This document shows positions 5,810 to 49,847 of a DNA stretch of 62,394 bases, one piece after another. Source of the stretch: a virus (Duplodnaviria > Caudoviricetes); IMG/VR virus record IMGVR_UViG_3300037483_001825, positions 1-62,394 of that record. One strand, written 5' to 3'. A model generated the notes under the pieces. That model ran no database searches. It was not told the origin of the DNA and worked only from the letters and a program-made list of their open reading frames with translations. The stretch's first letter is position 1. Every line of letters starts with the position of its first letter. Made by a program: the position numbers and the translations under genes.

Positions 5810-5844
5810 CTTACTTGAGGTGTTTACATATGTTTGGGTTCAGA

Positions 5845-6072: not shown

Positions 6073-6108
6073 CTTAAGTAAAGAGGTGGGACGGGACTAA
6101 CTAAAAAC

Positions 6109-7628: not shown

Positions 7629-7953
7629 TTTGATCCTTAAAGTAAGCCGAATAAGAGAAGTGTTAAACCAATAAAAAACAGACTGCATTTACTACATTCA
7701 CGCTAGCGATGGGGGAACCCACTCCAGCGTATCCTTCGCAGAGCTTGAGCTAAATATAGACCGGTAACTCCAATAGTTCTTCCCATAGCGACTTACACAA
7801 AACACCACTAACAAACAGGACTTGACATTCTCAAATTGTTTTGCAATCATTGATGTATGAGAAGTAAGAAATGTAAGATTACGCTTACCATACATAACCC
7901 ATCTAGCTTCAGATCGATTTACACCAAGAGTCTTTCAAATCTCTTTCCCTTGC

Positions 7954-7987
7954 AAACCCCGATTAACAGCGAAGTCTGGGTTTTTTT
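7954..7987 (+). terminator. hairpin plus T-tract in leader of 8029 gene
   Basis: AAACCCCGATT..AAGTCTGGGTTTTTTT imperfect stem. Confidence 0.35.
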
Positions 7988-8028
7988 ATAACTAAAGCTG
8001 TAGAAAGGAGGTGAAAAAATAAAAAGCT

Positions 8029-9428: not shown

Positions 9429-9443
9429 ACCAAGGATGAGGCA

Positions 9444-9476
9444 AGGAATCTAGCTCTGAACAGGGCTAGATTTCCT
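9444..9476 (+). terminator. hairpin after secreted-protein pair
   Basis: AGGAATCTAGCTCTG-AA-CAGGGCTAGATTTCCT. Confidence 0.6.
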
Positions 9477-9561
9477 GTTGGTAAGGGTAATAAGTAAGCA
9501 AAGTAAGAATAATTTGACTTTACTTATCTTTGTGGAGATAATGTTGAGAAACAAAGTAAAT

Positions 9562-10104
9562 ATGAAAAATACAACACTTAAACCAGCTAAAAACTACTTA
9601 CTCTACGGGTTAGCAATTCTCATAGTTGCAGGAATTTCCTTTCAGATATTCCGGCCGAAAATTGATCAATCTCAATTCCAACCCATTGATAAAAGCACTT
9701 GGGAGGGACACACAGTAGCAGATTACTTCATAGACAAGCTACGCATGACACCAGAAGAAGCTCAAGACTCAGAAAAACTAGGAGCCAGCTTCTACGTAAC
9801 CGAAAACATGACCCTTGATGCACTTATCGGCAACCTTCACTACTACGGCTTTGTACGCGACGAGGATGCCCTCAGATACGCCTTAGAAAACTCAGAAGAC
9901 ACAAACCCAGGCAAAGACAATGCCATAAAAATAGGCGAAAACACAATTGACCGAGGAGTATACGGCCTGGGAACACAAATGACTGCCTGGGAAATTGCCC
10001 GAATCCTCCTCCACTACCCCCAGGAAGTAAAAACAGATTATGGTTATATGTTTATGCCAGGTGGTCCTTATATGGGAGAACCACAAGGAAGACCCTTAAA
10101 GTAA
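9562..10104 (+). CDS. membrane-anchored protein with MltG/YceG N-terminal-like domain
   Basis: N-terminal TM; LIGNLHYYGFVRDEDAL..G.Y.L...MTAWEIARIL; ORF 9478..10104. Confidence 0.55.
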   Translation: MKNTTLKPAKNYLLYGLAILIVAGISFQIFRPKIDQSQFQPIDKSTWEGHTVADYFIDKLRMTPEEAQDSEKLGASFYVTENMTLDALIGNLHYYGFVRDEDALRYALENSEDTNPGKDNAIKIGENTIDRGVYGLGTQMTAWEIARILLHYPQEVKTDYGYMFMPGGPYMGEPQGRPLK

Positions 10105-10670
10105 TGAAAATAAAGCCAATCACCATCGCCGCTACTTTTATTATTGCTGTCAGCGGCACTTATTTGTATTCTCAAAGAACAATCTCTTCTTCCTCAACTA
10201 ACGAACCAATAACCCTGCAAGACAGTGAGCCAACAAATATACCGGAAGCGTCTCCCAGTAGACCCCTCAAGGAAGATGAAAAGTTCATCGGATCTATGGG
10301 CTTATATGTCACGGTCCCCGAAGGAATGAATTTTAGGCAAAATCCAGCAACAGAGCATGCTGTTAACTTTTATATCGAATCCGGGCCTCAGGAGAAACCA
10401 ACTTATCAGTTTTATGCTATCTTCCAACCCAACAGCAATATAGCTGAAAAAGGACTGGAGCAAGCAAAGAAGGAAATGGACCAAGAATCAATCCAAGAAG
10501 CCACTGTAGACGGCCTCAAGGGCGTAGAAGGGCTAATTATCGGACCAAAGGGACGTTACCATACAATCATAATCAAGGACGGAAAACTTATGTCATTTTC
10601 TACTTACCCACCGACCGAGGAAAACAAAGCGATTACAGAGCAGATATTATCGACTGTGAGCTTTGAGTAG
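10104..10670 (+). CDS. membrane-anchored PsbP-like protein
   Basis: N-terminal TM; TVDGLKG..., EQILSTVSF C-terminus. Confidence 0.5.
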   Translation: MKIKPITIAATFIIAVSGTYLYSQRTISSSSTNEPITLQDSEPTNIPEASPSRPLKEDEKFIGSMGLYVTVPEGMNFRQNPATEHAVNFYIESGPQEKPTYQFYAIFQPNSNIAEKGLEQAKKEMDQESIQEATVDGLKGVEGLIIGPKGRYHTIIIKDGKLMSFSTYPPTEENKAITEQILSTVSFE

Positions 10671-19650: not shown

Positions 19651-19751
19651 AATTTTTGAATTTTATCAACTAAATGTATTCTTTCTAACGTGCTCAATAT
19701 AATTGAAAAGAAAATAAATGAATGGCTGAGGTGGCAATCGCTGTAATTTCT

Positions 19752-20846
19752 TTATTTTACAATCTTCATTAAATCTTCCTCCCGCTCGTAGGCTTTTAAC
19801 CTCCCGGAAACAATACCTAAACGGTAGTAGATACCTTCACTCATCAAACGCCAGTTAGTGCTCCCTAGAGCAGATTCAATGACCTTTTTTATTGTGTGGG
19901 TGCTGTCATATTCTTCTCGGTCATCTTTGCTGTCGGTGGCACTGAATTCAACGACTACAAACTTGCCCATTTCCGGCTTGTTAAATTCAAGATCAATATA
20001 GCCATTATCAGCGATTGCTTTAGAAATCAGATCTTTAAGCTGATTGAGTTTTAGTTTTTTAAGTTTCTTAGCTTTCTGAAAAATTGGATCTTTTTCCTTT
20101 TTCTCCTGCTCCTTCCATTTTTTGGATAGAGCTACAATGCCATCCAGACTGGCAACGGCTTTCGGTCCCGACTCATCATTTAAGCAAAATTCAGAGCGGT
20201 ACTCTTCCAAAAGCTTGCGCTGTCTTTCTTCTTCCTTTTCCCTCTCAATACGCTTATTTTTAGAATCTATGACATCAACTTCTTTAAATGAACATTTTGG
20301 GCAATAAGTGATAGTGGTAAGCTTCTCTCCTTTTTCTTCGTATTTGGTCTTGAGCTCTACATCGCAGTCTTTGCACTTGGGTCTTTTGAAGTCCCAAGGA
20401 GAGCCATCCTCATAGAAAATTTGTCGTTTCTGGCATTTCAAACACTCAAAAATAAAGGACACCCTCATATTATCGTCGTAGGCATCGTGGAGAGTTTTAT
20501 CAATGACTTTAGTAGCAGAATCGCATTTGTCGCAGCGTACCCCGTCAGGAGGCGTAGCGTTATCAATTTTTTCTTGGCGCCTCCGATCAGCTTCCATCCA
20601 TTCTGAAATACGTTCTTTTTTGTGACGATATCGATTGATTTTTGTAACGTTAACTGTGTAGCTACAGCACTTGTGCACTTCTTTGTCGAAATCAGTATCA
20701 GGTTCTTTAGTCTTTAACTCCTCCCGATGTTGCTCCATTCCCTTACGCAAACTCCAATACCATTCTAAGCATTCCTCGATGGTGTGGAGGTCGTATCGAT
20801 CAATATATGCCTGTTCTTCTTCTAAATATTTAATGTCGGATAACAT
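19752..20846 (-). CDS. hypothetical protein with two Zn ribbons
   Basis: CDKC/CLKC and CKDC/CPKC pairs. Confidence 0.7.
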   Translation of the reverse strand: MLSDIKYLEEEQAYIDRYDLHTIEECLEWYWSLRKGMEQHREELKTKEPDTDFDKEVHKCCSYTVNVTKINRYRHKKERISEWMEADRRRQEKIDNATPPDGVRCDKCDSATKVIDKTLHDAYDDNMRVSFIFECLKCQKRQIFYEDGSPWDFKRPKCKDCDVELKTKYEEKGEKLTTITYCPKCSFKEVDVIDSKNKRIEREKEEERQRKLLEEYRSEFCLNDESGPKAVASLDGIVALSKKWKEQEKKEKDPIFQKAKKLKKLKLNQLKDLISKAIADNGYIDLEFNKPEMGKFVVVEFSATDSKDDREEYDSTHTIKKVIESALGSTNWRLMSEGIYYRLGIVSGRLKAYEREEDLMKIVK

Positions 20847-33233: not shown

Positions 33234-33422
33234 TTATTTGTTTTTCTTGTTAATAAACTTCTCAATATCTTCCTTCTTATAACGTCTCACCCTTTTTACC
33301 CCAATTCTCACGGCCGTAAGCACGCCTTTTTTATCCCAGAGCCTAAGAGTATTTGGGTGCACTTTCAAAATTTGTGCCGCTTCACTCAGTGTTAATAGTT
33401 CTTCCATAGGCTTACTTACCAT
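33234..33422 (-). CDS. MerR/excisionase-like HTH protein
   Basis: LLTLSEAAQILKVHPNTLRLWDKKG..RRY. Confidence 0.85.
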   Translation of the reverse strand: MVSKPMEELLTLSEAAQILKVHPNTLRLWDKKGVLTAVRIGVKRVRRYKKEDIEKFINKKNK

Positions 33423-33558
33423 TAGATACTAATAGAATACAAAATATTTCCATTTATTTCAACAGTTCATTATACCTTCAATCAGGCTTTTACACTTACC
33501 AACATTAACGAACTAGCATTTTTATACCCAATTTTATAGCCTAAAAGAATAAATTAAC

Positions 33559-33630
33559 CGCCTAACGAATCTATCGGGGCTTGGGATTCTCTATTTTTCC
33601 AAAAGTAGACGAACCTAAGCCCTTTTTTTT
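33559..33630 (+). promoter_or_regulatory. conserved leader motif copy 1 overlapping a terminator-like hairpin
   Basis: CGCCTAACGAATCTATCGGGGCT, stem 33577-33622, then T8, 16 nt before portal ATG. Confidence 0.65.
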
Positions 33631-33646
33631 GTTAGTCAACACCACT

Positions 33647-35536
33647 ATGCCAAAACCCAAAGTCAAAGAAACTAAAATCACACCCCAGAAAAGATACCAG
33701 CCTTCTGAGCGTGACGAAGAACTCTTAAAAAAATGGAAGGCTCGATTTAAGCGAGCTAAAGAGTTTCGTGAACCATACCAAGCAAAATGGCTGAGAATGT
33801 ACAGGCTTTACCGTGCGTACCAACATAAACAGAATTACGCTTACAACACCCGACTGATGCCCCCGATTGCCTTTGAGATTGTCAAAACAGTTGTTTCCCG
33901 CCTTGCTACTGCCAAGCGCAAAACACGAATAATACCTAGAGATAAAGGGGACGTTGAATCAACTTCTTTACTGTCCTGGGACGACTTGGTGAATTATGAC
34001 TTCGACATTATCGAGTTGGCCAAGAAACTCCCCAACTGGATAGAGTCTTCAGTGTTGTATGGAAATGGGATAGTCAAGCTTGCATGGAAAATGAAAAGCA
34101 GGAAGAAATCTGATGGCTCGTTTAAAACTCTATATGATGACCCCACCATGATCTTGTGTGATCTTTGGGACTTCCTGCCGGCTCCGGAAACAGAAGATCT
34201 TCAAGAAGGCTGTCCTTGGCTCATTCATCGGATAATAAAAACCAAGGAAAAAATCACCAAAGAAGAAGAAAGTCGTGGTGAAAATAACATTTATAAGAAT
34301 CTGGAGTTTTGTGAACCTAAAGTCGTAGAGGATTGGAAAAAAGAGCGATACGAGATTAACACTAAAAAGATGTCGCAAATTGACGGCGATATCAAAAAAG
34401 CTGACACTGGGGAGCAAAAAGTCTTACCGGCTAAAAATGATCAAGAGAAACAACTGGAACTATGGGAATGCTGGGACTATGAGGATGACGAGTTGGTGGT
34501 TATTGCTAACGGCGAAGTTGTAATTAGAGATGATGAAAACCCCTACTTGGATATAAATGACGGGCATATTTTTGTTGACTTGCCTGATATGTCACTACTT
34601 TGGGAATTTTGGGCTACTGGCCATGTTGAGCCAGTTGAAAGCACCATCATGGAGATTGCTGATCTTCGTAATCAGCGTATGGATGATGTGATCTTGATGT
34701 TAGATCCAGTAGTCAAGATTCGCAAAGACACTGGCATAACTAAAAATGACATCATCTTCTCACCAGGTGCGGTGTGGGAACTCAGGAAAATGGATGATGT
34801 GGTGATTGAACGTCCTCCTGAAATCAGCTTAATGGGGCTCAATGAGGACAAACTCCTAAGGGATGAGATATCCAGAACTCTAGCTCTAGGTGAGTACCTG
34901 CAGGGTCTTCCCAGATCGTCAAGCGAGCCACTTGGCAAGGTAGCAATGTTATTAGGTCAAAGCAATTTGCGACTAAGCATAAACGCACAAAATATTTCCA
35001 ATGCGTTAACAACTGTGGCCAATATTCTTATTCAGCTAAATCGTGAATTCTTAAGTGAAGACAAACTCTATCGTATTGTGGGAAACAATGTCAATTTCAA
35101 GGAATTTAAATCTGACGACAAGAAAGTCCATGTAGATGCCATTGTAGAGGTTGAGCCGGTGATACCGCCTGATAAACAAGCCAGACTAAATCAAATTTTA
35201 CTCTTATACGATAAATTCATTGCCCAAGACAAACCGGACCCCAGCGATCCAGTGGGTATAAAACAGTGGTTGGTTCGCAAACGAGCTCTACAAAAGATGA
35301 TTTTAGAGGAGTTGGATTTCGAACAATACGTCGATATCCTGCTTGGTCCCGAAGTGACATTAAAGCAGGAGGAGGCTGAAGAAGCGCCACCGAAAGTGGA
35401 AGCCGTTGCCCCTGTGGCGCCTTCTAACGGCACTTTGCCTGCAAATACAACCAAAGCACCACCTATGGCGGATACGAACAAAATTAGAGAGTTAATCGGG
35501 AAAATTCCAGAGTTAGGTAAAATGCTTACAAATTGA
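33647..35536 (+). CDS. portal protein (podovirus-like)
   Basis: ~630 aa; YGNGIVKLAW, DLWDFLP.P, N.RMD; size and position; ORF track start 33581 lies inside the hairpin. Confidence 0.8.
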   Translation: MPKPKVKETKITPQKRYQPSERDEELLKKWKARFKRAKEFREPYQAKWLRMYRLYRAYQHKQNYAYNTRLMPPIAFEIVKTVVSRLATAKRKTRIIPRDKGDVESTSLLSWDDLVNYDFDIIELAKKLPNWIESSVLYGNGIVKLAWKMKSRKKSDGSFKTLYDDPTMILCDLWDFLPAPETEDLQEGCPWLIHRIIKTKEKITKEEESRGENNIYKNLEFCEPKVVEDWKKERYEINTKKMSQIDGDIKKADTGEQKVLPAKNDQEKQLELWECWDYEDDELVVIANGEVVIRDDENPYLDINDGHIFVDLPDMSLLWEFWATGHVEPVESTIMEIADLRNQRMDDVILMLDPVVKIRKDTGITKNDIIFSPGAVWELRKMDDVVIERPPEISLMGLNEDKLLRDEISRTLALGEYLQGLPRSSSEPLGKVAMLLGQSNLRLSINAQNISNALTTVANILIQLNREFLSEDKLYRIVGNNVNFKEFKSDDKKVHVDAIVEVEPVIPPDKQARLNQILLLYDKFIAQDKPDPSDPVGIKQWLVRKRALQKMILEELDFEQYVDILLGPEVTLKQEEAEEAPPKVEAVAPVAPSNGTLPANTTKAPPMADTNKIRELIGKIPELGKMLTN

Positions 35537-35545
35537 GAGTTGGCT

Positions 35546-35573
35546 TTGATTTATTGCCTTGAGTGAATATAAT
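35546..35573 (+). promoter_or_regulatory. sigma70-like promoter at left edge of island 2
   Basis: TTGATT-16nt-TATAAT, 7 nt before ATG 35581 (possibly leaderless). Confidence 0.5.
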
Positions 35574-35580
35574 TGAAAGT

Positions 35581-35832
35581 ATGAAGGTAAGAAAAGTAAA
35601 ACTCTTCATAACAATGCTTATGGCAATATTGTTTGCAATAGTCGGCATAATCGTTGGTTATCAACTTAGAGGCAATTCCAGACCAACTAGCTGTGCAGAA
35701 CTCGGCGCAACTTATCTTGAAATTGGAAAAGAAGAGTTGGGGATAACAGACTTCGGATCAGACGAATGGATAAGGTTAATTGATGATGAAACAAAGTTTA
35801 CGAATGACTGTTACAAAAGCATGAATAAATAG
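35581..35832 (+). CDS. small membrane-anchored protein
   Basis: N-terminal TM, two Cys. Confidence 0.6.
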   Translation: MKVRKVKLFITMLMAILFAIVGIIVGYQLRGNSRPTSCAELGATYLEIGKEELGITDFGSDEWIRLIDDETKFTNDCYKSMNK

Positions 35833-35833
35833 T

Positions 35834-37396
35834 ATGGATAAAATAACCCTCTCCTTCCAAACAATCTCCTTGCTTATCAACTCAGGTGAATCAAAAAAAG
35901 CACTACAGAGATTAACTGAGTTCGAAAGGGAAAACTCTGATGACAAAAGGCTGGTATTTTATAAGCCTGGTTTTCTAGTTGATATAGGAAATGACCTCAG
36001 AGATGAAAAAGTCATTAGTGAGGGTATCAATATTGGCGAGCAAACATTATTAAAAACAAACAATAACAAGACAAAGGCTTATCTCCACTACTGCCTGGCA
36101 AATGGGTACACATGTCTATATCAGCTTACTGAAAGAATGGGTGGTGCTGTGGACAGAACCATACCTCAAAGCGAGAATCTTCTCAAGGCTAAACAACACT
36201 TGCTTCAAGCCACACATATTGAAATTGATGACTCAAGTCTAGAAGTCCAATTGTTGGTTAATCTGGGAAACTGCTTAGACACATTTGGTAGAGGGATTGA
36301 GGCAATTCACGCTTATGACAAGGCTCTTCGTTTGAGTAAAAACTTCCCAATGGCAGTAGCTAATAGAGCAAAGGCACTTCGGGGTTTTGCTGAGATTTCT
36401 GATAAATATCGACCTTCGATATATGTTACGGCTTACCAGGATATTAAATCGGTCCTAGATGATTCAAGGCTTGTACAAGTTGGTGGGCTTGAAGCAAAAA
36501 AGGAATTTGAGCGTGAGCTTATCTACATCGAGTCTCGTTTTGAAGATAAATCACTACTCAAGAAAAAAATTAAACACCCTCGATATAAAACTAATGGACT
36601 TACCAAGTTTGAAAAATACTACTTAGATTTCTGCAGTCACGAAAGGCTGTTTCTGAACTTTCATATTCATGACGACTTTTGCGAAGCAGCAATTGAAGAT
36701 CCTGTGTTCATCAGACTGATTACGAAAGTTGATGATAACGATACATTCTACAGCTTTGCAAAACAACTCAACCAGATCAAGGAAGATTACGCCGTAGCCA
36801 GGTTGAATCTGGTCCTATCCCAATACAAGCAAAAGTCGTTCGACAGCATTAGTAAGAGAACTAGTTATGTATATGCTTTGGACTATTCCCAATTTAATCT
36901 TTACATTGGTTTGCTGAAGTCGGCGTTTAAAGATGCCTTTAACATTCTGGACAAGATAGCCGTATTTATTAACGACTATTATGACTTGGGACTCAAAGAA
37001 AATAACATTTATTTTGTTACTGCATCCATCTGGGAAGGTAAAGGAATTATCAGGAAAGAAATACTTAACTCTGAAAACTTAAGCCTTTATGCTTTATACG
37101 ATATTTATCGTGATTTTAAATCAAATAGATATCAAAAAATGAAGCAAATCAGAAACGTTCTCACTCACAGAAGACTCATTGTTTTTGATTCCATAATTAC
37201 AAGTGTTGATGATAAGACTGATAAACACAACATAGATTCTGACACCTTTTTTAAGGAAACACTAGATCTGATGCGTCTAACTAAGGCAGCAATTATTTAC
37301 TTGATTAATTTTGTTAATACTGAGGAAGAAAAGAAAAAGAAAGCGAATGGAAAGTTAATATTGGATATGCCTGTGGATACGTCTCAGTTTCTGTAA
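35834..37396 (+). CDS. TPR + LA2681-like HEPN domain protein (putative Abi RNase)
   Basis: TPR NLGNCLDTFGR..EAI..YDKAL; FLN.H, NQIKEDY..AR, F..LDKIA, RNVLTH (RxxxxH). Confidence 0.8.
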   Translation: MDKITLSFQTISLLINSGESKKALQRLTEFERENSDDKRLVFYKPGFLVDIGNDLRDEKVISEGINIGEQTLLKTNNNKTKAYLHYCLANGYTCLYQLTERMGGAVDRTIPQSENLLKAKQHLLQATHIEIDDSSLEVQLLVNLGNCLDTFGRGIEAIHAYDKALRLSKNFPMAVANRAKALRGFAEISDKYRPSIYVTAYQDIKSVLDDSRLVQVGGLEAKKEFERELIYIESRFEDKSLLKKKIKHPRYKTNGLTKFEKYYLDFCSHERLFLNFHIHDDFCEAAIEDPVFIRLITKVDDNDTFYSFAKQLNQIKEDYAVARLNLVLSQYKQKSFDSISKRTSYVYALDYSQFNLYIGLLKSAFKDAFNILDKIAVFINDYYDLGLKENNIYFVTASIWEGKGIIRKEILNSENLSLYALYDIYRDFKSNRYQKMKQIRNVLTHRRLIVFDSIITSVDDKTDKHNIDSDTFFKETLDLMRLTKAAIIYLINFVNTEEEKKKKANGKLILDMPVDTSQFL

Positions 37397-37436
37397 GACT
37401 TTTCCGGTAATTTTTTATATAATCTAGGTACATCCT

Positions 37437-39536
37437 ATGGAACAAAAAGCTGATCACACTATGGAGAGAGAAACACCTACAACCTTACACGCTCTGCGCA
37501 AAGATAACCAAACAGAAATTTTGGGGCATTTTTCTCCTGACCAACAGCAGGAAATTCAACACAGACAGCAAATTCTCTCCTCCTTGGCATACTTTATTGG
37601 TAAAGACTTTCAAATACCTGTTGAGCTAAATAAACCTGGTGCTGGCTGGCATTGGGACTTTGGTAAAAATATTATTCGCATCGACCCCAAAGATTTACTT
37701 GAAAAAGATATGGACTACCTGCGTTTTGTTATTTCCCATGAAGGTGGTCATAGGCGTGTTTCACGAACAGAGGATATTCCCACCGAAACCTGGCAAAAGC
37801 CTGGCTTCTCTTTCATGATGAACGCAATTGAAGACCCCAGAACAAATAATTTTGTAGCTGAAGCTTACCCTCGCTTTCGTGACCAGATGGACATTGCTTA
37901 TCAAGAAGATCTAGATTTTGAGGGTAAAACAAAAGAAAAAGCTCAGGATCAGTTGGGCTACACCCCACGATTTATGCAAGCCGGTTTTGAGTACATTCGT
38001 CAATGGTACAGAGAAACTCAAGGCGAAGAATTGGGAACTTTGAGTGAAGACTTACCGGAAGAAGTAAAAACTGTAGTTAACCAGACCTTGGAAAGTGCGC
38101 GGGATTCTTGGTTGCGTTACCCTTCAAAACAGGAGGCTGATGAGAGTGAAGAACTAATCAGAAGGTATGCCAATGTCAGTTATGAAATTAACAGAGATGA
38201 AGTCTGGCCAAAATTTCAGAAACTGGTTGAGGAGGATATGCAAGACCAGGAAATGCAGGAGTTTATGAAAGATATGCAGGGTGATGGGGAAGGTGATGGA
38301 CAACAAGGACTCCCACAGGAACTTTCTGATTCACTTACAGAGGATGAGCAAAAAGAATTAGAAGAAGCGATAGAAAATGCCCAGCAAGGAAATCAAACTG
38401 GTTCGGAAGGTACCGGCCAATCTAAGGCAATTGATCTTGACTCTCTTTCTGAAGGTCTTAAACAAAAAATTAAGGATTATATTGATTCTCTACCAGAAGA
38501 TGTCAAACGGGAGTTAGCGGAGAAAGCACAGCAGGCTCTACAGGACTTCGAGCGTGAAGTAAATGAAGAATTTGAAGGAAAGCTATCAGATAATCCAGAA
38601 AAACTAGCACAGCGCGGTGAAACTACTGAAAGTCAAAAAAAAGAGTCAAGACAGGAATCAGAAGATGAAAGTGAAACTGAGAACCGCCCAGAGCAAACTA
38701 CTGACCAAAAACGATTTAAAGACTTGATAGAAAAAGCCTTGCTTGGAGATGAAAATACTTATGAAGAATATCGTCGCGATGTACTTCCCTTGATTGACAC
38801 GCTTGAGTCTGACTTGCGAGAAATTTTTGTAGCCAGAAGATCTCAAAAATGGCAAACAGGGTTCAAATCTGGAAAGCGCATCGATATTAAACGTAGAATG
38901 CAAGAAAAGGCGTTAGGGATTTCTGCAGTCGAAAGCAGAGCTTGGCAAAAGCGTGAAGTTCCTCAGGAAAAAGATTATGCGATTAGTTTACTAGTCGATT
39001 TGTCGGGCTCCATGCGAGGACAAAAAATTAGAGAGACATTCAGAGCGGCAGTTGTGCTCGCTGAGGTGCTTAACAGACTCTCAATCAACACCGAAATTCT
39101 TGGTTTCAATGACAGGCTTTATGAATACCAACCATTTGGGCAAGACATGAGCCGTGAGGTAAGAGAACACATGGGTGGAATACTTCAGGAAGTAGATACT
39201 TCTGCCGCTGCACACAATGATGACGGCTGGGCTGTACAACAAGCTTCAGAGAGATTAGCGCGTCAAACCGCAGCTGAGAAATTTTTATTTGTACTTTCTG
39301 ATGGTCTACCAGAAGAATCAAGCGCCCACTCTGGACTAGAGTATGAGCTTGGCAAAACTGTTAATCAGATAATGCGGGATACAGATCAAAAATTAATTGG
39401 TCTGGGTATTGGTCCCGGAACAGATCATGTCGGGAGATATTATCCAAATAGTGTGGCAAATATTGGAGTGCGCGAAATGTCGGAGAAATTAGCTGATATT
39501 ATTAGAGAAGTAATCGCCAATTATGACACTTTCTAG
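37437..39536 (+). CDS. metallopeptidase-like + vWA domain protein (CobT-like architecture)
   Basis: HEGGH (HExxH) and NAIEDPR; acidic linker; MIDAS DLSGS, NDDG, LSDG. Confidence 0.85.
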   Translation: MEQKADHTMERETPTTLHALRKDNQTEILGHFSPDQQQEIQHRQQILSSLAYFIGKDFQIPVELNKPGAGWHWDFGKNIIRIDPKDLLEKDMDYLRFVISHEGGHRRVSRTEDIPTETWQKPGFSFMMNAIEDPRTNNFVAEAYPRFRDQMDIAYQEDLDFEGKTKEKAQDQLGYTPRFMQAGFEYIRQWYRETQGEELGTLSEDLPEEVKTVVNQTLESARDSWLRYPSKQEADESEELIRRYANVSYEINRDEVWPKFQKLVEEDMQDQEMQEFMKDMQGDGEGDGQQGLPQELSDSLTEDEQKELEEAIENAQQGNQTGSEGTGQSKAIDLDSLSEGLKQKIKDYIDSLPEDVKRELAEKAQQALQDFEREVNEEFEGKLSDNPEKLAQRGETTESQKKESRQESEDESETENRPEQTTDQKRFKDLIEKALLGDENTYEEYRRDVLPLIDTLESDLREIFVARRSQKWQTGFKSGKRIDIKRRMQEKALGISAVESRAWQKREVPQEKDYAISLLVDLSGSMRGQKIRETFRAAVVLAEVLNRLSINTEILGFNDRLYEYQPFGQDMSREVREHMGGILQEVDTSAAAHNDDGWAVQQASERLARQTAAEKFLFVLSDGLPEESSAHSGLEYELGKTVNQIMRDTDQKLIGLGIGPGTDHVGRYYPNSVANIGVREMSEKLADIIREVIANYDTF

Positions 39537-39553
39537 TATACTATGCATATCAT

Positions 39554-39961
39554 ATGACAAATACATTTGAAGATTTTCTAAAATACACTAAATCCCAAAA
39601 AGAAGTTTCTCTAGTGATTGCTAAGGATGATAATGAGTTTGATAGTTTCTTAAAGAAGCTGGGTGATGCTCAGTTTAGACAGGCAGTTGATACTTCTGAC
39701 TTGTTTAAGCATATTACAAAGGCTTCAAAATCTTTTGTAGCAGTCAAAGACACTTTGTCTAAGGATCTATATGATTTTGCAGTGCAGTACCCTACTGGTC
39801 AGGTTGAGATTTACGATAAGTTTAATTTAAAATCCCAAATAATTACACCAGTTTATAACGATGTTACTGTTGTTTACGTATTAACTAAGGCTGCCCTTAA
39901 GAAAACCCAGGAGTCCGGGTTTAGGATTCTTGAGATAGCAGGTATTACATATCAAAGCTAA
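39554..39961 (+). CDS. hypothetical protein between vWA and AAA genes
   Basis: 135 aa, tightly spaced in operon; YDFAVQYPTGQVEI. Confidence 0.7.
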   Translation: MTNTFEDFLKYTKSQKEVSLVIAKDDNEFDSFLKKLGDAQFRQAVDTSDLFKHITKASKSFVAVKDTLSKDLYDFAVQYPTGQVEIYDKFNLKSQIITPVYNDVTVVYVLTKAALKKTQESGFRILEIAGITYQS

Positions 39962-39966
39962 AAACT

Positions 39967-41910
39967 ATGCCAGACGAATCCATGGAGAGACATCAATTTA
40001 CGCCACCACCAGAATATCCTGTTGAGGAGAACCGTGATACTGTCGCCTATCTAGGTGTCCGATTACCCAAAGCTCAAAATGCAGAAGGACATTTTGTCCC
40101 CAGCCGAGAACAATATGCCGATTACATAAACGATAAGTTTTCTCTTGGGTTACAAAAGGACATTGCAGTCAGCTGGCTACAAGGTGATCCGATATTGATC
40201 GAAGGTGGAACTAGTATTGGTAAAACCACTACGGTCAGGAAAATGGCAGCAGATCTGGGTTGGGAAGTTCATTATGCCAACCTAAACGGTGCAACAGATG
40301 TTGAAGACCTGATGGGTAGATACATCCCCAATCCCGACAAAAGAAGTGCTGATGATCCAGAGTATATATTCGCAGACGGAAAAGTTACTTCAGGTTTAAG
40401 ACAGGAAGACGGCAAAGTTAAAGTAATTATTCTAGATGAATTTAATTCAGCTGCTCCAAACATTGTTATTCGACTTCATGAAGTTTTAGATGCAGTCAAT
40501 CGCGGTGAAGCCGTTGTTTTATCAGAAGACGCATCTGAATCCATTCCTGTCAGCAAAGAAGCTACTAAAGTAGTGGCTCTTATGAACCCCCCTGGTAAAG
40601 GGTATTTTGGCAGGGAGCCATTGGATCCGGCACAATTAAGGCGTTGGGTGTACCTAAAAGCTCCTTCTGAATTACCTGATGACACCTTCTCCTACTCTAC
40701 AGATGCTCTATTTACTTTAGCTTCTCTGGAAGAAGAAGTTTCCCCTGAAGACTTTCTGATTTCACAGGACTACGCCTTGCATCCAGAGCAACTACAGGAA
40801 ATACAGGGAATTGATTCAATTTTAGGAAAATACAAAGAGTTTCATAAAGCAGCAAAAGAGTTGGTTAAAGGCAGGCGAATAGCGGCAGACCAGCCTCAGC
40901 CGTTTACTTATGATGATAGAATGGAGCCTAGGCGCGTTCGTGACTTCATCCTGAGATTTTACAACGGTGATATAAATGAAACGTTTCAGGCCGCCCTACG
41001 CTATTACTATTCAAATAAGTTGGATTCAGAAGTAGATAAACAAAAACTTGAAGAATTAATTCAACATGTAGAATACATTGCTCCCCAGAATGTCTCCCCA
41101 AGGCGTGGCTTTGACCGCAACTCAGCCTCAGTTCCCGAAAGGCAAAGAGAGACAATCGAAGTATCTCAAGAACAGAATGCCTGGAGCGATGTTCTAGGGA
41201 CTAATGTGGAAGTTCCTCCTCTGCCAGCGAAAATAACACCAGAGGTCCAAAGAAACCTTGAACGCCTTGGATTTGAATTAAGGTATATTCCCAGACTTGA
41301 TATGGGTACACTAGATGAGCTTCAACGTAATGGCCAGGAGAAATTTCTTGACGAGATCCAAAGTCGTTACCCTAACTGGCGTCGATATGAAACCTTATCC
41401 AGTGAACAAAGAGAAGATCACAGAGTCGGAAGAAATCTGGAAGAGTGGTTTTGGGGATTGGCAAAGGACGGAAGAATGGACTTCCCTCGGCTACCAGGCA
41501 CTTGGGTGGCCGTAGAAACTATGCAGAAGCCTCCCTATGGGGAACATTACGACAAAACTCCAGTAAGCGAGGGTTTGGGACTTGAAGATCGTTTTAGTGT
41601 TTCTTGGGACGATGCTCACAGGGCAATTGAGAATAACAAAAGTGAGCTTTTGAGGGAAATTGGCTTACCGTCTTCAGCTGAAGTGAGAATGTTAGAAGCC
41701 GTTGAATGGAACTTACTTGCCAATCGTGAAGGTTGGGGTTCTACCAACACCTATGAATGGACGAATACTGAAGTTCGTGATGACGGCGGTTCTACCCGTG
41801 TCATTGTTGGCAACTCCGGCCTTGGTGGTGCCGCCAACGCCAATTGGAATCTTCCGACGCACTCGTGTGGCCGCCTTGGTTTCCGTGTCGCTGTAGTTCT
41901 TGGAACTTGA
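39967..41910 (+). CDS. DGR target: MoxR/AAA_5-type ATPase with C-terminal CLec (FGE-like) variable domain
   Basis: GGTSIGKT, IILDEFN, MNPP..GREPLDPAQLRRW; C-terminal RMLEAVEW, TYEWT, LGFRVAV; contains VR. Confidence 0.9.
   Translation: MPDESMERHQFTPPPEYPVEENRDTVAYLGVRLPKAQNAEGHFVPSREQYADYINDKFSLGLQKDIAVSWLQGDPILIEGGTSIGKTTTVRKMAADLGWEVHYANLNGATDVEDLMGRYIPNPDKRSADDPEYIFADGKVTSGLRQEDGKVKVIILDEFNSAAPNIVIRLHEVLDAVNRGEAVVLSEDASESIPVSKEATKVVALMNPPGKGYFGREPLDPAQLRRWVYLKAPSELPDDTFSYSTDALFTLASLEEEVSPEDFLISQDYALHPEQLQEIQGIDSILGKYKEFHKAAKELVKGRRIAADQPQPFTYDDRMEPRRVRDFILRFYNGDINETFQAALRYYYSNKLDSEVDKQKLEELIQHVEYIAPQNVSPRRGFDRNSASVPERQRETIEVSQEQNAWSDVLGTNVEVPPLPAKITPEVQRNLERLGFELRYIPRLDMGTLDELQRNGQEKFLDEIQSRYPNWRRYETLSSEQREDHRVGRNLEEWFWGLAKDGRMDFPRLPGTWVAVETMQKPPYGEHYDKTPVSEGLGLEDRFSVSWDDAHRAIENNKSELLREIGLPSSAEVRMLEAVEWNLLANREGWGSTNTYEWTNTEVRDDGGSTRVIVGNSGLGGAANANWNLPTHSCGRLGFRVAVVLGT
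41776..41897 (+). repeat. DGR variable repeat (VR)
   Basis: 122-bp match to 42370-42491; 12 of 13 mismatches at TR adenines. Confidence 0.95.
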
Positions 41911-41956
41911 TCTCTTGAATTCTTGGTTCTTTTGGATTCTTGTTACTTGGTCCCTT

Positions 41957-41973
41957 GACCCGCGAAGCGGGTC
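41957..41973 (+). other. DGR cis hairpin/cruciform downstream of VR
   Basis: GACCCGC-GAA-GCGGGTC, perfect 7-bp stem with GAA loop. Confidence 0.85.
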
Positions 41974-42030
41974 GATTTTAGTGATTTTTTTATGTCTTCA
42001 CAATATGTAGACTATAGATAGCATTTACCC

Positions 42031-42060
42031 TTGATTTTAGGCACTACTCTTCTTTATACT
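42031..42060 (+). promoter_or_regulatory. candidate promoter for TR RNA
   Basis: TTGATT-18nt-TATACT. Confidence 0.45.
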
Positions 42061-42369
42061 TCAACTTAGATTTTGTTAATGAAAATACGGGCACGCTCGT
42101 GTTTCGCAAAGTCGCTCTTCTTTAGAGCTAGACCAGAGTCCTTATGGTTAAGGCTGTAGGGAGCGTGTCGATAAAGGAGGGATAAAACTACTTGCTTACT
42201 TTTGAAGGTCTCAGGGAAACCAGAGCCGATTAAAATACAGGAGAGAGTTCTTAAGCAATTAGGGACAATCTTGGTAAAGAGTAAAAATTCAAAATAGTAC
42301 GTTAAAGAAACCAGTGGCAACAATGAAAGGCTTAATATCCTTTCAGGAAAGAAAGTAAGCAACGCGAAA

Positions 42370-42491
42370 CGTGATGACGGCGATTCTAACCGTGTCATCG
42401 TTGGCAACTCCGACAATGGTGGTGCCGCCAACGCCAATTGGAATCATCCGACGAACTCGAATGACAACCTTGGTTTCCGTGTCGCTGTAGT
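42370..42491 (+). ncRNA. DGR template repeat (TR)
   Basis: A-rich copy of VR: 27 adenines, 9 AAY codons in the VR frame, only one third-position A. Confidence 0.95.
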
Positions 42492-42531
42492 CTTATCTCA
42501 ACCTGCACAAATAAACTGTACCAAGCCAGAG

Positions 42532-42918
42532 TCAGGAATTATAGGTGGATGCTTTAATCCAGCCGCCAAGCATCCTACCTATTTCCTGTAGTTTGGATTC
42601 AAGAAGGAGGTAATTTTTGTTATCAATAATCTTTAAATCTTTACAACAACGTATGAGTACTTTAAGAACATCGAGTTTAATACTAGCACCCTGTAGAGTT
42701 GGCACTTTTTCAGACTTTGAAAGCTGGCTTGCAGTGACGATATCTTCAATCAGCCCCAGCATACCATTTTCAATTTTTTGCCCGATAGAGTACCGGTCTT
42801 TTTTAGGAAAATGAGCTACAAGTTGATAAAAGAATTTGTAGAGCTCGTATGTTTTATGAAAAACCGGTATGTCTAAATTAAGCCTGCCCGGTTCAAAGCT
42901 TTTATGAGAATCTGGCAT
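42532..42918 (-). CDS. avd: DGR accessory variability determinant (four-helix bundle)
   Basis: FPKKDRYSIGQKI ... EIGRMLGGWIK; lies between TR and RT. Confidence 0.88.
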   Translation of the reverse strand: MPDSHKSFEPGRLNLDIPVFHKTYELYKFFYQLVAHFPKKDRYSIGQKIENGMLGLIEDIVTASQLSKSEKVPTLQGASIKLDVLKVLIRCCKDLKIIDNKNYLLLESKLQEIGRMLGGWIKASTYNS

Positions 42919-43941
42919 AATAATTACAATCAGATTATAACACTTGAAAACTTATTTCAGGCATGGGAAGAATTCCTCAAAGGTAAAAAAAGCAAAGCTG
43001 ATGTCGAAATATTCGGGCGAAATTTAGAAGATAATATCTTTACTTTATATGAGGAACTTGAGAAAAAGGCTTATCGTCACGGAAATTATCAGGAATTTTA
43101 CGTCAGAGATCCTAAGGTCCGTCATATCCATAAAGCTTGTGTAAAGGACAGGGTGGTTCATCATCTTACAAGTAGCGTGCTGGAGGAGGTTTTTGATCCC
43201 ACTTTTTATCCTCACTCCTACTCATGCAGAAAGAATAAAGGGACACATAAAGCTGTCCAGACTTTTGTAAAAATGTCCAGAAAAGCCAGTAAAAATAACA
43301 CCTCAAAATTACTGGTTTTGAAATGCGATATCAAAAAGTTTTTTGCAAATGTTGATCACGAAATTCTGATTAAGCTGCTCAGAAGAAGAATTAGTGATAA
43401 AGACTTTATTAATCTTTTAACAGAGATAATCACCAGTTTTAAGTTACTTAATCAAAATTGCGGAATGCCCATAGGTAACTTAACGTCACAACTTTTTGCC
43501 AATATTTATATGGATCCCCTAGATCAATTTGTGAAACATAATCTTGGAGTTAAATACTACATACGATATGCCGATGATTTTGTTGTTATGTCGGACAATC
43601 GCAAGTATTTGGAAGAAATTCTTTTACAAATGAAAAGTTTTCTTGATACAGAATTAAAACTTACCTTGCATCCAAATAAAATTCACATTGTGGATTATTA
43701 CCTTGGTGTTGATTTTTTAGGATACGTGATTTTTCCAAAATACATTCTGCCTCGAACAAAAACAAAAAGAAGGATTTTTAGAAAACTAGAGGAAACATCC
43801 CAAAAAATAAAAGATGGCATCCTCCTTCCGGAGGCACTCGATCAGGCTCTTCAGTCTTATCTAGGACATTTGTCACACTGCAATAGCTACAAACTGTCTC
43901 AAGAAATAAAAAACCATGCCCTCTTTTTTCAGACTAATTAA
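42904..43941 (+). CDS. DGR reverse transcriptase
   Basis: PKVR.I, DRVVHH, SYSCR..KGTH, CDIKKFF, GMPIGNLTSQLFANIY, RYADD, DFLGY; 345 aa, no maturase/endonuclease tail. Confidence 0.95.
   Translation: MRIWHNNYNQIITLENLFQAWEEFLKGKKSKADVEIFGRNLEDNIFTLYEELEKKAYRHGNYQEFYVRDPKVRHIHKACVKDRVVHHLTSSVLEEVFDPTFYPHSYSCRKNKGTHKAVQTFVKMSRKASKNNTSKLLVLKCDIKKFFANVDHEILIKLLRRRISDKDFINLLTEIITSFKLLNQNCGMPIGNLTSQLFANIYMDPLDQFVKHNLGVKYYIRYADDFVVMSDNRKYLEEILLQMKSFLDTELKLTLHPNKIHIVDYYLGVDFLGYVIFPKYILPRTKTKRRIFRKLEETSQKIKDGILLPEALDQALQSYLGHLSHCNSYKLSQEIKNHALFFQTN
42934..42942 (-). promoter_or_regulatory. extended -10 promoter for avd inside RT 5' end
   Basis: Minus strand TGTTATAAT, 15 nt upstream of avd ATG. Confidence 0.5.
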
Positions 43942-44153
43942 AAAGTGAATAATTCTTGCATTTCGACTTTAAGAGCTTTGGCCAGCCTGTGAATATTATC
44001 AAGGGAGACATTTTGTTCTCCCCTTTCAACCGAGCCAATATATGTCCTATGAATGTCGGCCTTAAAACCCAACTCTTCCTGGGACAATTGTGCTTCCTTT
44101 CTTAGGAATCTTAGTCGTTTGCCGAATTTTTTTCTAACATTATATTTTGGCAT
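43938..44153 (-). CDS. XRE HTH, RM controller (C-protein)-like
   Basis: FGKRLRFLR...SQEELG...IHRTYIGSVERGEQNVSLDNIHRLAKAL. Confidence 0.9.
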   Translation of the reverse strand: MPKYNVRKKFGKRLRFLRKEAQLSQEELGFKADIHRTYIGSVERGEQNVSLDNIHRLAKALKVEMQELFTF

Positions 44154-44185
44154 ATTACCCTTGACTAAAAGAGTAGTTTTTTGCA

Positions 44186-44211
44186 GACAATAACTCTACA
44201 GACGATAACTA
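44186..44211 (-). promoter_or_regulatory. C-box-like tandem operator
   Basis: Minus strand TAGTTATCGTC-TGTA-GAGTTATTGTC, 15-bp period. Confidence 0.55.
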
Positions 44212-44237
44212 GCATTTGTGCTACAATTAGCCCTGAA

Positions 44238-44549
44238 ATGAAGAAAAATATGGCTATAGAATTTTATGAATTCAGCCCCATTGAAGGCATTAGTGATGAG
44301 GCTCTTCTTAAGGCTGTTAAAAAAGCCCAATACAGCTTTTTCAGAAAGCAAGAGGGCTTCATTGGATGTGAAATTCTTAAATCAGGAAAAAACTGGGTGA
44401 GCATTAGCTACTGGAAAAATGTTGAGGTGGCTAGAAGAACACTCGATCAGTTCCTAAATCATTCAAGCAGTCTACCCTTTGTACAAATGATATCTCCAAG
44501 CAGTGAACGTCGCTTATACATGCGACGGAAAATGTCCTCCAAGAAATAA
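44238..44549 (+). CDS. ABM/dimeric alpha-beta barrel-like protein
   Basis: FFRKQEGFIGCEIL...WVSISYWKN; 3' part of ORF 44181..44549. Confidence 0.55.
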   Translation: MKKNMAIEFYEFSPIEGISDEALLKAVKKAQYSFFRKQEGFIGCEILKSGKNWVSISYWKNVEVARRTLDQFLNHSSSLPFVQMISPSSERRLYMRRKMSSKK

Positions 44550-44631
44550 TCTCCTATTTAATCACCATAAACTGACACAAAGTTTATTGCGATCTATTTT
44601 CTTCTTGATTAGACTGTAACCATTAGGAAGT

Positions 44632-44704
44632 CGCCTAACGAAACAATCGGGGCTGTAGCTTCTGAATATACGCAAGATAAGCGTGTGTTTAGAAGTTGCA
44701 GCCC
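44632..44704 (+). promoter_or_regulatory. conserved leader motif copy 2 with 24-bp RNA stem
   Basis: CGCCTAACGAAACAATCGGGGCT; stem 44650-44673/44681-44704 with five G-U pairs and no mismatches. Confidence 0.7.
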
Positions 44705-44737
44705 TATTTAGTTTCCTAAAGGGATTGAAGTAAAAAA

Positions 44738-45136
44738 ATGAAAACACTTAATCAAAACATTCATACAGCCACATTGCTCCCCATAGGGTCAATTAGTGAG
44801 ACTACTGAGGGTGATTCAGTTGATACCTATCTGTCCAACAGGCCAGCCTATGATTCGGGATTGATTGATATTGCGATTGGAGATCTGGGTGACCAAACCT
44901 CAACCAAAGTAAAGATTGAGGAGTCAGACGCAGCAGACTTTTCAAGCGGAGTAAGCGTAGCGGTGGGTGGCGATGAAATTACTGTTACAGCTGATACAGG
45001 TTACAAAATGCAGATTGATCGCAAGAAAAGATATTTCAGGGCAGTTGTGACGATTGATGGCGGTTCGTCCCCCTCTGCTGAAGTCTATGTCGGAGCATTA
45101 CTATGGAACGCCCAACGACCGTTCCCATTCACTTAA
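44738..45136 (+). CDS. putative phage structural/decoration protein
   Basis: Beta-rich, KRYFRAVVT; head module position. Confidence 0.55.
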   Translation: MKTLNQNIHTATLLPIGSISETTEGDSVDTYLSNRPAYDSGLIDIAIGDLGDQTSTKVKIEESDAADFSSGVSVAVGGDEITVTADTGYKMQIDRKKRYFRAVVTIDGGSSPSAEVYVGALLWNAQRPFPFT

Positions 45137-46605: not shown

Positions 46606-47775
46606 ATGCCAGCATCAGCAACAGGAATCAGAGGTACAGGAAATGTCGGAGCGACACGCAAATATGACGTGGCGGATGTTGTATCGCTTTTGGATGTCAA
46701 TCGATATCCTCTAGTAGCGATATTGACAAATGCAGGTAAAGATCCGGCAACCGGCGAAGGAGAGGCTCTGAAAAAAAGAGAATCTTCTGATCCAGAATTC
46801 AAATGGTTTGAAGATGAATTCGGCAAACGACAACTCACAGGATCCAGCACAGTTGATCCAGATGGAGGCAACTTAACCATTACTGGTCAATCCCAGTATT
46901 TACAGGTTGGCGACATTATCTTGGTTTCAGCCCAAAAATGGGTCTTCCAAGTCACTGCAATCGTAGACGCTAACACGGTTACTGTCGGGGCTGAGTTAGG
47001 TGGGGCAACTGGATCGGCCGCTTCCGCAGTCGGAGACGTTTGGCTCATTGGTAACGCCAATGAAGAAGGTGCCGGTTTGCGAGATATCAAGTCGACAACT
47101 ATCGCCGAAGTAGCAAACTACTGTCAGATTTTCCGAACTCCAGTAGGTATCACAGAAACCGCCAGGAATACGCAGGGTTGGGTGAAAGAAAACGACTTTG
47201 ATTACCAAAGGCGCAAAAAAGGTATCGAGCATTATGTCGATATCGAGCGAACCTTTATGTTTGGTAAGAAAGGAATCGTAACATCAGGAACTCATCCGAA
47301 ACGCTTTACCAACGGTATTTTAGGGAGAATTGCCACTTACGCATCGGCCAACGTTGACACCGAGTCAGAATTTGACTCATGGCTGGAAAGTCTCTTTGCT
47401 CACGGCAATACAGAGAAATATCTGTTTGCATCTGCAGCAGTTGTTTCGATGGTTAACGGTTGGGCTAAAGGGAAGCTCCAAGTGGTTAACCCCACAAAAG
47501 CTTATGGACTGCGAATCGTGACTTATGACTCCCCGCACGGAACTCTGCATATCATCAAGCATCCGCTACTGATCGGAACGACTTACGGTAATTACGCCGT
47601 TGGTTTAGATATGGAGGCCTTGACCTACCGCTACCTGACAAATCGTGACACCAAGCTTTTGACTAATCGTCAAAATCCCGGTGAAGACAGCCAAGTTGAC
47701 GAGTACCTGACCGAATGTGGTCTGCAAATGGAACAAGAACAACGCCACGCCATTATGAGCGTAGGTTCACTCTAA
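46606..47775 (+). CDS. major capsid protein (DUF5309/SU10-like)
   Basis: KWFEDE, NEEGA, NYCQIFR, DIERTFMFG, YDSPHGTL, E.GLQM; strong SD. Confidence 0.85.
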   Translation: MPASATGIRGTGNVGATRKYDVADVVSLLDVNRYPLVAILTNAGKDPATGEGEALKKRESSDPEFKWFEDEFGKRQLTGSSTVDPDGGNLTITGQSQYLQVGDIILVSAQKWVFQVTAIVDANTVTVGAELGGATGSAASAVGDVWLIGNANEEGAGLRDIKSTTIAEVANYCQIFRTPVGITETARNTQGWVKENDFDYQRRKKGIEHYVDIERTFMFGKKGIVTSGTHPKRFTNGILGRIATYASANVDTESEFDSWLESLFAHGNTEKYLFASAAVVSMVNGWAKGKLQVVNPTKAYGLRIVTYDSPHGTLHIIKHPLLIGTTYGNYAVGLDMEALTYRYLTNRDTKLLTNRQNPGEDSQVDEYLTECGLQMEQEQRHAIMSVGSL

Positions 47776-47853
47776 AGCCTATCTAGGACTGAAAAAACTT
47801 ATGAAAGAAATTACTAAAAACCGGAAGTCACTACACACTTTCTTACTCAGTGT

Positions 47854-47889
47854 AGTCGCCTAAGAAGGGGTGAGCGTTATCACCCCTTC
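47854..47889 (+). terminator. degenerate motif copy (AGTCGCCTAAGAA) plus 10-bp hairpin after capsid gene
   Basis: GAAGGGGTGA-GCGTTA-TCACCCCTTC. Confidence 0.5.
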
Positions 47890-47947
47890 AAACTCAAGTC
47901 TGGAACTCTATTAAGTCAGACAACAAAGAAAGTGAGGTGAAAAAATT

Positions 47948-49532: not shown

Positions 49533-49847
49533 ATGCAAGAAAACGATATAGCTCTACTAGAACAAATAGTCAAAGCAATAGCTGACAAACCAGAAAAAGT
49601 CGTGATTGAACGCAAAGTCGATGAAATGGGTGTTTTGTTAGTTGTTCGTTTAGACAACCAAGATGCTGGTGCCTTAATTGGCAAGGAAGGCTCGACCATA
49701 GCTGCTATCAGAAGAATCATGAAGTTGGTGGGAGTCAAGAACAACGCCAGGATCAACGTCAAATTAGACGTGCCACCTAAAAGCAACAAAAAAGATTATG
49801 ACAAACCAAGTACTGAAGATCAAAGCAACAATCCAAGAAAACTCTGA
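49533..49847 (+). CDS. khpA: KhpA-like KH-domain RNA-binding protein
   Basis: LEQIVKAIADKPEKV..DEMGVLL..D.GALIGKEG.T..AIR..VG.KNNARINVK; own SD. Confidence 0.85.
   Translation: MQENDIALLEQIVKAIADKPEKVVIERKVDEMGVLLVVRLDNQDAGALIGKEGSTIAAIRRIMKLVGVKNNARINVKLDVPPKSNKKDYDKPSTEDQSNNPRKL

Follow-up and report, generated by a model that had tools for sequence, protein, structure and literature searches.

The 62,394-nucleotide IMG/VR record IMGVR_UViG_3300037483_001825, a 62.4-kb viral sequence (Caudoviricetes) classed as a provirus and hereafter called the window, carries two copies of a short structured element in front of its late (morphogenesis) genes. Our comparative analysis supports the view that this element acts as RNA in the leader of these genes, and that its small bulged hairpin and a long intrinsic (Rho-independent) terminator are mutually exclusive. 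With a probability of about 0.5, we propose that each copy is an antiterminator stabilized by a trans-acting factor, the likeliest factor being a small DUF2292-family protein encoded by the phage. The element would most likely gate virus particle production in a family of prophages of the ultra-small Patescibacteria (candidate phyla radiation, CPR).

The motif, CGCCTAACGA-N5-TCGGGGCT, lies on the + strand at 33559–33581 (copy 1) and 44632–44654 (copy 2), directly 5′ of the portal block and of the head-tail block, respectively. The copies are identical at 21 of 23 positions, and both differences are located in the loop. No third site is found across the whole window at up to 3 mismatches, and the 2 observed matches compare with 0.02 expected by chance, with 2 or more matches seen in 0/100 shuffles. 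Each copy folds into a small hairpin (G60-C80 in copy 1) with a 4-bp stem G-C-C-U/G-G-G-C (P1), an AA bulge, and a CGA/UCG stem (P2) that closes a variable loop, at a predicted −6.3 kcal/mol. A covariance model built from the alignment of relatives matches both copies, at 33538–33601 (61.9 bits) and 44612–44674 (51.5 bits). A weak additional match at 19711–19762 (22.7 bits, E = 0.022) was found on reading to miss the core motif.

In both copies, the GGGC of the hairpin is also the 5′ base of a long stem. The copy-1 terminator (33577–33630, + strand) has a 22-position stem, the first 4 nt of which are common to the P1 hairpin, and its arms (33577–33598 and 33601–33622) form 17 Watson-Crick pairs, 3 G-U pairs, and 2 mismatches, followed by T8. 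In the copy-2 terminator (44650–44712, + strand), the arms (44650–44673 and 44681–44704) form 24 contiguous pairs, i.e. 19 Watson-Crick and 5 G-U, around a 7-nt loop, with a T-rich tail, TATTTAGT. On the + strand the 2 regions fold at −26.8 (copy 1, z = −4.3) and −45.8 kcal/mol (copy 2, z = −8.9), compared with −18.0 (z = −1.2) and −24.8 kcal/mol (z = −3.7) on the − strand, and for the full leader the terminator is the structure of minimum energy. As such, both structures present the features of intrinsic terminators, namely a stable stem with a G+C-rich base and a U-tract on the transcribed strand. A simple terminator scan lists the copy-2 stem of the related record G005 and misses those of the window because of their loop and mismatch geometry. 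An earlier note on this DNA, made from the sequence alone, had reported the repeated motif with its loop-only differences, its fold as GCC-UAA bulge-CGA(N5)UCG-GGGC, the copy-1 stem with U8 before the portal, and the copy-2 stem of 24 bp with 5 G-U pairs on the + strand; the pattern counts, shuffles, and folds given above confirm each of these.

Across relatives, the anatomy of the leader is constant. A sigma70-type promoter is followed by a leader of ~18–24 nt, the hairpin CCU(A/G)ACG-loop-CG(G/A)GG, the long stem, the U-tract, and the portal or head genes. Specifically, P1 is GCCU/GGGC, the bulge AA or GA, and P2 CG(A)/(U)CG, while the long stem has 22–30 bp and begins with the hairpin's own GGGC; indeed, in 62/62 instances the terminator stem opens with the 4 nt of the motif's 3′ strand. 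The apical loop is 7–8 nt in some lineages and 25–30 nt in others, and conserved unpaired nucleotides include U(A/G)A with G/A opposite and, in the long form, CUAAA(C/A)G. Promoters are clearest outside the window: the copy-2 promoter of G005 reads TTGACA-18-TACAAT (score 11/12), and TTGACA-N17-TAAAAT or TATAAT can be read 20–24 nt upstream of the motif in several other loci (L093–L098, L102, G014, and L157). By alignment with G005, the putative −10 hexamers of the window are TAGCCT for copy 1 (33537–33542, + strand, aligned with TAGAAT or TACAAT), which has a weak −35, and TAGACT for copy 2 (44610–44615, + strand, aligned with TACAAT), with TTGCGA 17 nt upstream. Five loci (L112, L115, L117, L122, and L140) carry an extra structured region of ~130–150 nt between the element and the portal start, which ends in a hairpin and U-run immediately before the portal start codon.

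Conservation in related phages, on which the earlier note had made its proposal depend, is extensive. A total of 62 distinct instances were gathered from related IMG/VR contigs (retrieved through 13 portal and 32 capsid loci) and from prophages in GTDB genomes, mostly labelled Patescibacteria. The motif is 5′ of the portal in every close relative with upstream sequence and, in the closest clade, also 5′ of the gene following the portal. Each of the 5 whole related records contains 2 copies and no more, both on one strand and 2 to 20 kb apart. In G005 (34.6 kb, 94% complete) the 2 copies directly flank the portal with no cargo between, and for this reason we read the islands of the window as later inserts upstream of pre-existing leaders. 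The placement of the copies at the right edges of both islands, emphasized in the earlier note, thus holds as a description and is secondary to their position in front of late genes.

The element also persists in more distant phages. Among 10 distant IMG/VR portal loci found with a portal profile (58–64% identity), 7 carry the variant C(C/U)UGACG-loop-CG(G/A)GG and 2 have nothing; in the remaining one (L100/G011) the promoter and terminator persist without the 5′ half of the motif. The portal profile returned 40 loci in GTDB genomes (L125–L164), 25 of which are labelled as Patescibacteria lineages, and the motif is upstream of the portal in 35 of the 37 prophage loci with upstream sequence. 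Other GTDB loci are labelled Gammaproteobacteria and similar, in genomes that are equally small where checked (e.g. G020, 0.9 Mb). Portal identity across motif bearers falls to 48%. When 5 whole host genomes (0.9–1.1 Mb) were searched, the element was found at the prophage only, with 1–2 matches each, and it is present in 5/151 genomes in a sample of the same class.

Evidence for constraint at the RNA level comes from an alignment of 58 sequences. Every one of the 332 cells in P1, P2, and the basal part of the inserted loop hairpin (P3) is compatible with pairing, compared with 25–58% in slid registers. In all 58 sequences P1 (alignment columns 26–29 with 66–69) draws on the opening 4 nt of the terminator stem, which is the overlap expected of an attenuator and which bears out the earlier claim that GGGC is common to the hairpin and a mutually exclusive long stem. 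Furthermore, the closing pair of P1 changes from G:C to A:U in 3 sequences, and both alternative pairings survive because the 3′ arm of the terminator changes together with P1. Such three-way compensatory changes are found in L021, L013, and L093; other paired changes include CC:GG to UC:GA in L157 and a U.G pair to U-A in L093. The long-form loop holds the inserted hairpin, and among the 15 distinct loops there are at least 7 stems that differ by compensating changes. Among 53 distinct terminator hairpins, stem positions 0–3 are G-C or G-U in 53/53, positions 5–9 show 4–7 pair types with 42–52 of 53 paired, and ~15% of the stem pairs are G-U. At least 5 T follow within 9 nt of the stem in 62/62 instances. 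Together with the strand-specific folding, these pairings and compensatory changes support the earlier suggestion that the G-U pairs point to selection on RNA.

Before the 3′ arm is transcribed, the nascent RNA is predicted to adopt the hairpin, which is often lengthened by pairs that the leader forms with the 5′ arm. Two possible extensions of the hairpin were set aside. A contiguous P1 beyond 4 bp is not supported by the next positions, which pair in 16–25 of 51 sequences, and P0 (CAGAAG with CUUCUG), seen in many minimum-energy folds, is kept only as a possibility for long-form lineages.

The element appears to be undescribed, as the earlier note had supposed. A search of the whole window with Rfam 15 (4,227 covariance models) gave 0 matches at gathering thresholds, and at E up to 10 both leaders gave only generic long-hairpin (miRNA) and other sub-threshold matches. 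In a literature search at the level of titles and abstract openings, we found no paper on the element or on the function of DUF2292.

The proposed mechanism is as follows. Host RNA polymerase would start at the sigma70-type promoter ~20 nt upstream of the hairpin and transcribe the small hairpin first, then the stem of 22–30 bp with its U-tract. Left alone, the long stem would win and transcription would stop before the portal or head genes. We take termination as the probable default because the hairpin is predicted at −6.3 kcal/mol, compared with −26.8 and −45.8 kcal/mol for the terminators. A trans-acting factor that binds and stabilizes the small hairpin would sequester the G-rich base of the terminator and permit read-through. 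If the factor is the phage's own DUF2292 protein, made together with the terminase, the outcome would be a feed-forward cascade from the packaging enzyme to the parts of the particle. A factor-stabilized antiterminator fits three features of the element, namely an overlap that never varies, a bulge that is conserved, and a hairpin that is weak. The earlier note had proposed an undescribed protein-dependent antiterminator for late genes; an undescribed late-leader RNA with a terminator-exclusive hairpin stands, while protein dependence, like transcription start, termination, read-through, binding, and the identity of the factor, is something we infer.

This kind of mechanism is known; the sequence, host group, and candidate partner are new. 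The closest parallel is with the BglG/SacY/LicT systems, in which the ribonucleic antiterminator (RAT) hairpin overlaps the 5′ arm of a terminator and is too weak to compete unless a protein clamps it. The window element likewise is a short imperfect hairpin in a leader, with a conserved bulge and an overlap with the terminator 5′ arm. It differs in showing no sequence likeness to the RAT consensus and in preceding phage morphogenesis genes rather than sugar operons, with a DUF2292 protein of ~60–75 aa as candidate partner; no CAT/PRD family of the BglG/SacY type was found by Pfam among the ~70 window open reading frames (ORFs) scanned. There is also a likeness to late control in lambda, where the PR′ promoter is followed by the tR′ terminator and the processive Q antiterminator is loaded through a DNA site together with a sigma-dependent pause. 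In both systems a strong terminator follows a constitutive-looking sigma70 promoter within ~100 nt, ahead of the late genes, whose expression would thus hinge on antitermination. Unlike lambda Q, which acts from one site, the element forms a conserved RNA hairpin that overlaps every terminator, in a module that recurs ahead of successive units.

The case for DUF2292 as the partner is one of comparative genomics, i.e. distribution, co-loss, and adjacency. In the window, the DUF2292 ORF (5241–5462, + strand; 73 aa; PF10055, 26.7 bits vs. a cut-off of 22) starts within the end of the large terminase gene. An ORF overlapping the terminase stop codon is found in 8/8 motif-bearing phage records; among these 8 syntenic homologs, 5 match Pfam DUF2292 at E up to 0.1 and 3 are joined to them by alignment and synteny. 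DUF2292 is also present in 4/4 further motif-bearing host genomes, so that the co-occurrence proposed as a check in the earlier note holds in 12/12 of the motif-bearing genomes examined closely. The gene is absent from G011, G012, G015, and G170. G011 falls within the clade, with 68% (terminase) and 79% (capsid) identity to the window; it belongs to the lineage without the 5′ half of the motif and retains only a 16-codon stub of the gene. In L157, whose portal is 48% identical, the promoter-leader-portal unit starts right after the end of the DUF2292 gene. By contrast, the earlier claim that this gene would abut copy 1 if the first island were removed is not supported, as ~5 kb of other genes (5463–10670) would lie between them. 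In the class sample, all 4 strong DUF2292 matches are in genomes positive for the RNA, which shows only membership of one phage family. We therefore regard DUF2292 as a tentative candidate for the trans-acting factor, with odds that fall clearly short of even.

Several observations weigh against the proposed mechanism, or against this partner. Changes on both sides of a pair in P1/P2 are few (1 pair, 3 cells), scarce because the core is nearly invariant, and a shuffle control for pairs changed on both sides reached the same value in 71/500 cases. The extended pairing P0 is weak relative to shuffled leaders (mean z = −0.6; 10/57 at 0.05 or below). The window promoters of both copies are under the threshold of the promoter scan and have poor −35 elements; near copy 2 the scan lists instead CTGACA-17-TATTTT at 44572–44600, which leaves the exact start site uncertain, and the start sites given here are putative because the scan does not call these hexamers. 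In G009, G010, and G014, a second hairpin with a U-run sits between the element and the portal start, where a local switch would be insufficient, and this leaves room for a processive mechanism. As regards DUF2292, G011 and G170 have the same leader type and constitute a single lineage, so there is one informative co-loss with the motif. The other link follows clade boundaries, as would any clade-specific gene, and one genome (G128) has the element without DUF2292. The AlphaFold model of the protein, a helix and beta-hairpin, is of low confidence (pLDDT 66), and a Foldseek search of it against the PDB returned nothing at E of 0.001 or below and no RNA-binding fold.

Alternatively, the element may be a site of processive antitermination comparable to HK022 put or lambda nut. 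The hairpin, by itself or with a phage factor or a Nus-type factor of the host, would then alter the polymerase such that this terminator and those further downstream are ignored, and competition for GGGC would be incidental. Put and nut suppress terminators over kilobases without overlapping them. The likeness lies in promoter-proximal RNA stem-loops, 2 copies per phage genome; the element is promoter-proximal in every instance, and the second hairpin and U-run before the portal start codon in G009, G010, G011, and G014 would suit such a site. Yet a nut or put site needs no overlap, and the 3′ strand of the motif starts the terminator stem in every instance; moreover, the element shows no boxA or boxB likeness and no Rfam match, and in G011 the promoter and both hairpins are present while the 5′ half of the motif is missing. 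No N-, Q-, or NusG-like family was found among the window ORFs scanned, all of 50 aa or more, in a search for which N proteins are poorly modelled. We consider a processive site unlikely on balance. A similarly low probability attaches to a constitutive structure, i.e. a leaky terminator, RNase III site, or mRNA stabilizer that fixes how much upstream product is made relative to downstream product, with the small hairpin as a conserved 5′ cap structure. Stems of 22–30 bp are long for terminators and resemble the RNase III substrates of T7 and lambda, the stability of the small hairpin does not exceed that of shuffled sequences (z = −1.2 and −1.6), and P0 is weak. What such a structure leaves unexplained is the invariant overlap, the strict conservation of bulge and closing pairs down to 48% portal identity, and the three-way compensatory changes that preserve both pairings.

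A small molecule bound in the P1/P2 internal loop might instead stabilize the antiterminator, making the element an ON-type riboswitch comparable to the pbuE adenine riboswitch, whose P1 has nucleotides in common with the terminator and, when stabilized, gives read-through. P1 of the element overlaps the 5′ arm of the terminator in the manner of such ON expression platforms, and unpaired nucleotides are conserved. Unlike in pbuE, the core is far smaller (4+3 bp with a 2-nt bulge), and we know of no aptamer of that size. The apical part varies freely between a 7-nt loop and a 30-nt insert, with only the core around the bulge invariant; no Rfam family matches; and the genes downstream are always virion genes, a context that suggests no ligand. 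Paired changes between copies (e.g. UGA twice in L136) fit a coevolving macromolecular partner or gene conversion, and a riboswitch seems quite improbable. More improbable still is a site read in DNA, such as a repressor operator, a recombination or insertion target at the island edges, or a Q-type pause or loading site. CGA-N5-TCG forms a small inverted repeat, variable cargo regions of 2–20 kb have the copies at their right ends, and helix-turn-helix (HTH) genes are nearby (33234–33422 and 43938–44153). These points are countered by the strand specificity of the G-U pairs and folding energies, the variable-length loop insert with its compensating stems, and flanks that are not palindromic. 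The orientation is likewise constant, 20–24 nt downstream of the −10 hexamer, and G005 has both copies without cargo.

Other candidate partners for the hairpin fared worse than DUF2292. A KhpA/KhpB-type KH-domain (RNA-binding) protein is encoded within the late structural block (49533–49847), and KhpA had been named in the earlier note as a possible ligand; this gene is present in some relatives only, being absent from motif-bearing G006, G007, and G008 and present in motif-less G011, and we reject it. An extracytoplasmic function (ECF)-type sigma factor (6109–6612, + strand) reading a ‘TAGnCTG’ promoter is rejected on 2 grounds, as it has no homolog in the 10 related records compared and relatives show ordinary sigma70 hexamers. 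A gene with a NYN domain directly upstream of the altered G011 leader, considered as a swapped-in partner, was also dismissed, since L140 has the same leader type with a YceG-like gene and no NYN. For DUF2292 itself, a sequence profile search of the PDB gave nothing below E = 0.17. In a wider IMG/VR search, one set (A3) was too divergent, and another of 3 sequences (A4) returned its own 3 contigs only.

If the proposed mechanism is true, the element would be a defined late-gene switch in Patescibacteria phages, where gene regulation is almost unexplored because neither hosts nor phages have been cultured. It would also offer a first functional lead for the DUF2292 family, which turned up in only 2 papers in a full-text literature search, and a compact hairpin-terminator module usable as a regulatory part. 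It is conceivable, although we would not count on it, that DUF2292/YezD proteins make up a novel family of small antiterminators that bind RNA and here clamp a bulged hairpin of ~21 nt and thereby open the portal and head terminators. In that event, hairpin and protein would form a self-contained late switch that other mobile elements may borrow, as in G128. The antiterminator reading could also account for the cargo (the defense island and the retroelement described below), which would collect just upstream of each leader because the leader restarts regulated late transcription after the insert.

The G128 locus (L165, G128:C1:616000-635999) carries a leader of the copy-2 type near locus position 5597 on the − strand. 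This leader precedes a DUF5659 gene and a small-terminase-like gene, beside a large serine recombinase, and no portal, capsid, or DUF2292 gene is nearby. The locus could be a satellite or remnant that borrows the late switch of a helper phage.

Outside the family, we found 7 exact-pattern matches, of which 5 are in apparently GC-rich coding sequence without a hairpin or U-run. The other 2, in L062 and L081 (contigs of 132 and 177 kb), have the same sequence, an exact 21-nt match to the motif 10 nt after a TACTAT hexamer; its context is different, it has no U-tract terminator, it is not matched by the covariance model, and it may be due to chance.

Loop sequences vary in a way that differs among genomes. 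In L010, L136, L139, and L160, both copies of a genome often have the same loop (AAUUGAU or AAUUUAU), and in L136 both copies also carry the same bulge change, UGA. In the subclade of the window, loops differ between copies (compare G001–G004). Paired change of both copies within a genome would imply gene conversion or coevolution with a common partner.

The earlier note also proposed a degenerate third copy with a hairpin after the capsid gene, at 47854. The covariance model matches only the 2 copies described above and, with E allowed up to 10, gives no match at 47854. Instead, positions 47826–47890, after the capsid gene, hold a separate element of 2 hairpins that is conserved in relatives and has no U-tract. 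It shows compensatory changes of its own, with ACUACAC/GUGUAGU replaced by ACUGCAU/AUGCAGU in L021. In relatives that are more distant, this post-capsid place holds another conserved structure, which is different and larger.

The gene layout of the window was obtained with Pfam scans. The first part (1–10670, + strand) includes 2 DNA methylases and the large terminase gene (3677–5257), in addition to the DUF2292 and ECF-type sigma genes given above. A cargo block of defense-like genes on the − strand follows (10679–33422). The first gene under copy 1 is the portal gene (33647–35536, + strand; SU10_portal, 38.8 bits; 13 related loci). No recognizable Shine-Dalgarno sequence follows the U-tract at the portal start (33631–33649); other late genes carry AAAGGAGGTGA. 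A second cargo block (35563–44549) ends before copy 2, whose first downstream gene (44738–45136, + strand, 132 aa) matched no Pfam family and heads the head/tail block, in which the major capsid gene lies at 46606–47775.

The defense cargo on the − strand includes an OLD-family AAA_15/TOPRIM gene that forms a Gabija-like pair with the adjacent UvrD helicase, an Eco57I-type methylase-restriction enzyme, an SNF2 helicase with a PLD nuclease, a Cas4/DUF2779 protein, and an Hsp70-like protein with an AAA ATPase and a trypsin-like protease. The second cargo block contains a diversity-generating retroelement (39967–43941). Its variable repeat (41776–41897) lies at the 3′ end of a gene for an AAA_5 protein and its template repeat at 42370–42491, with 12 of 13 mismatches between the repeats located on template adenines. 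The retroelement is completed by a bAvd gene (42532–42918, − strand) and a reverse transcriptase gene (42904–43941).

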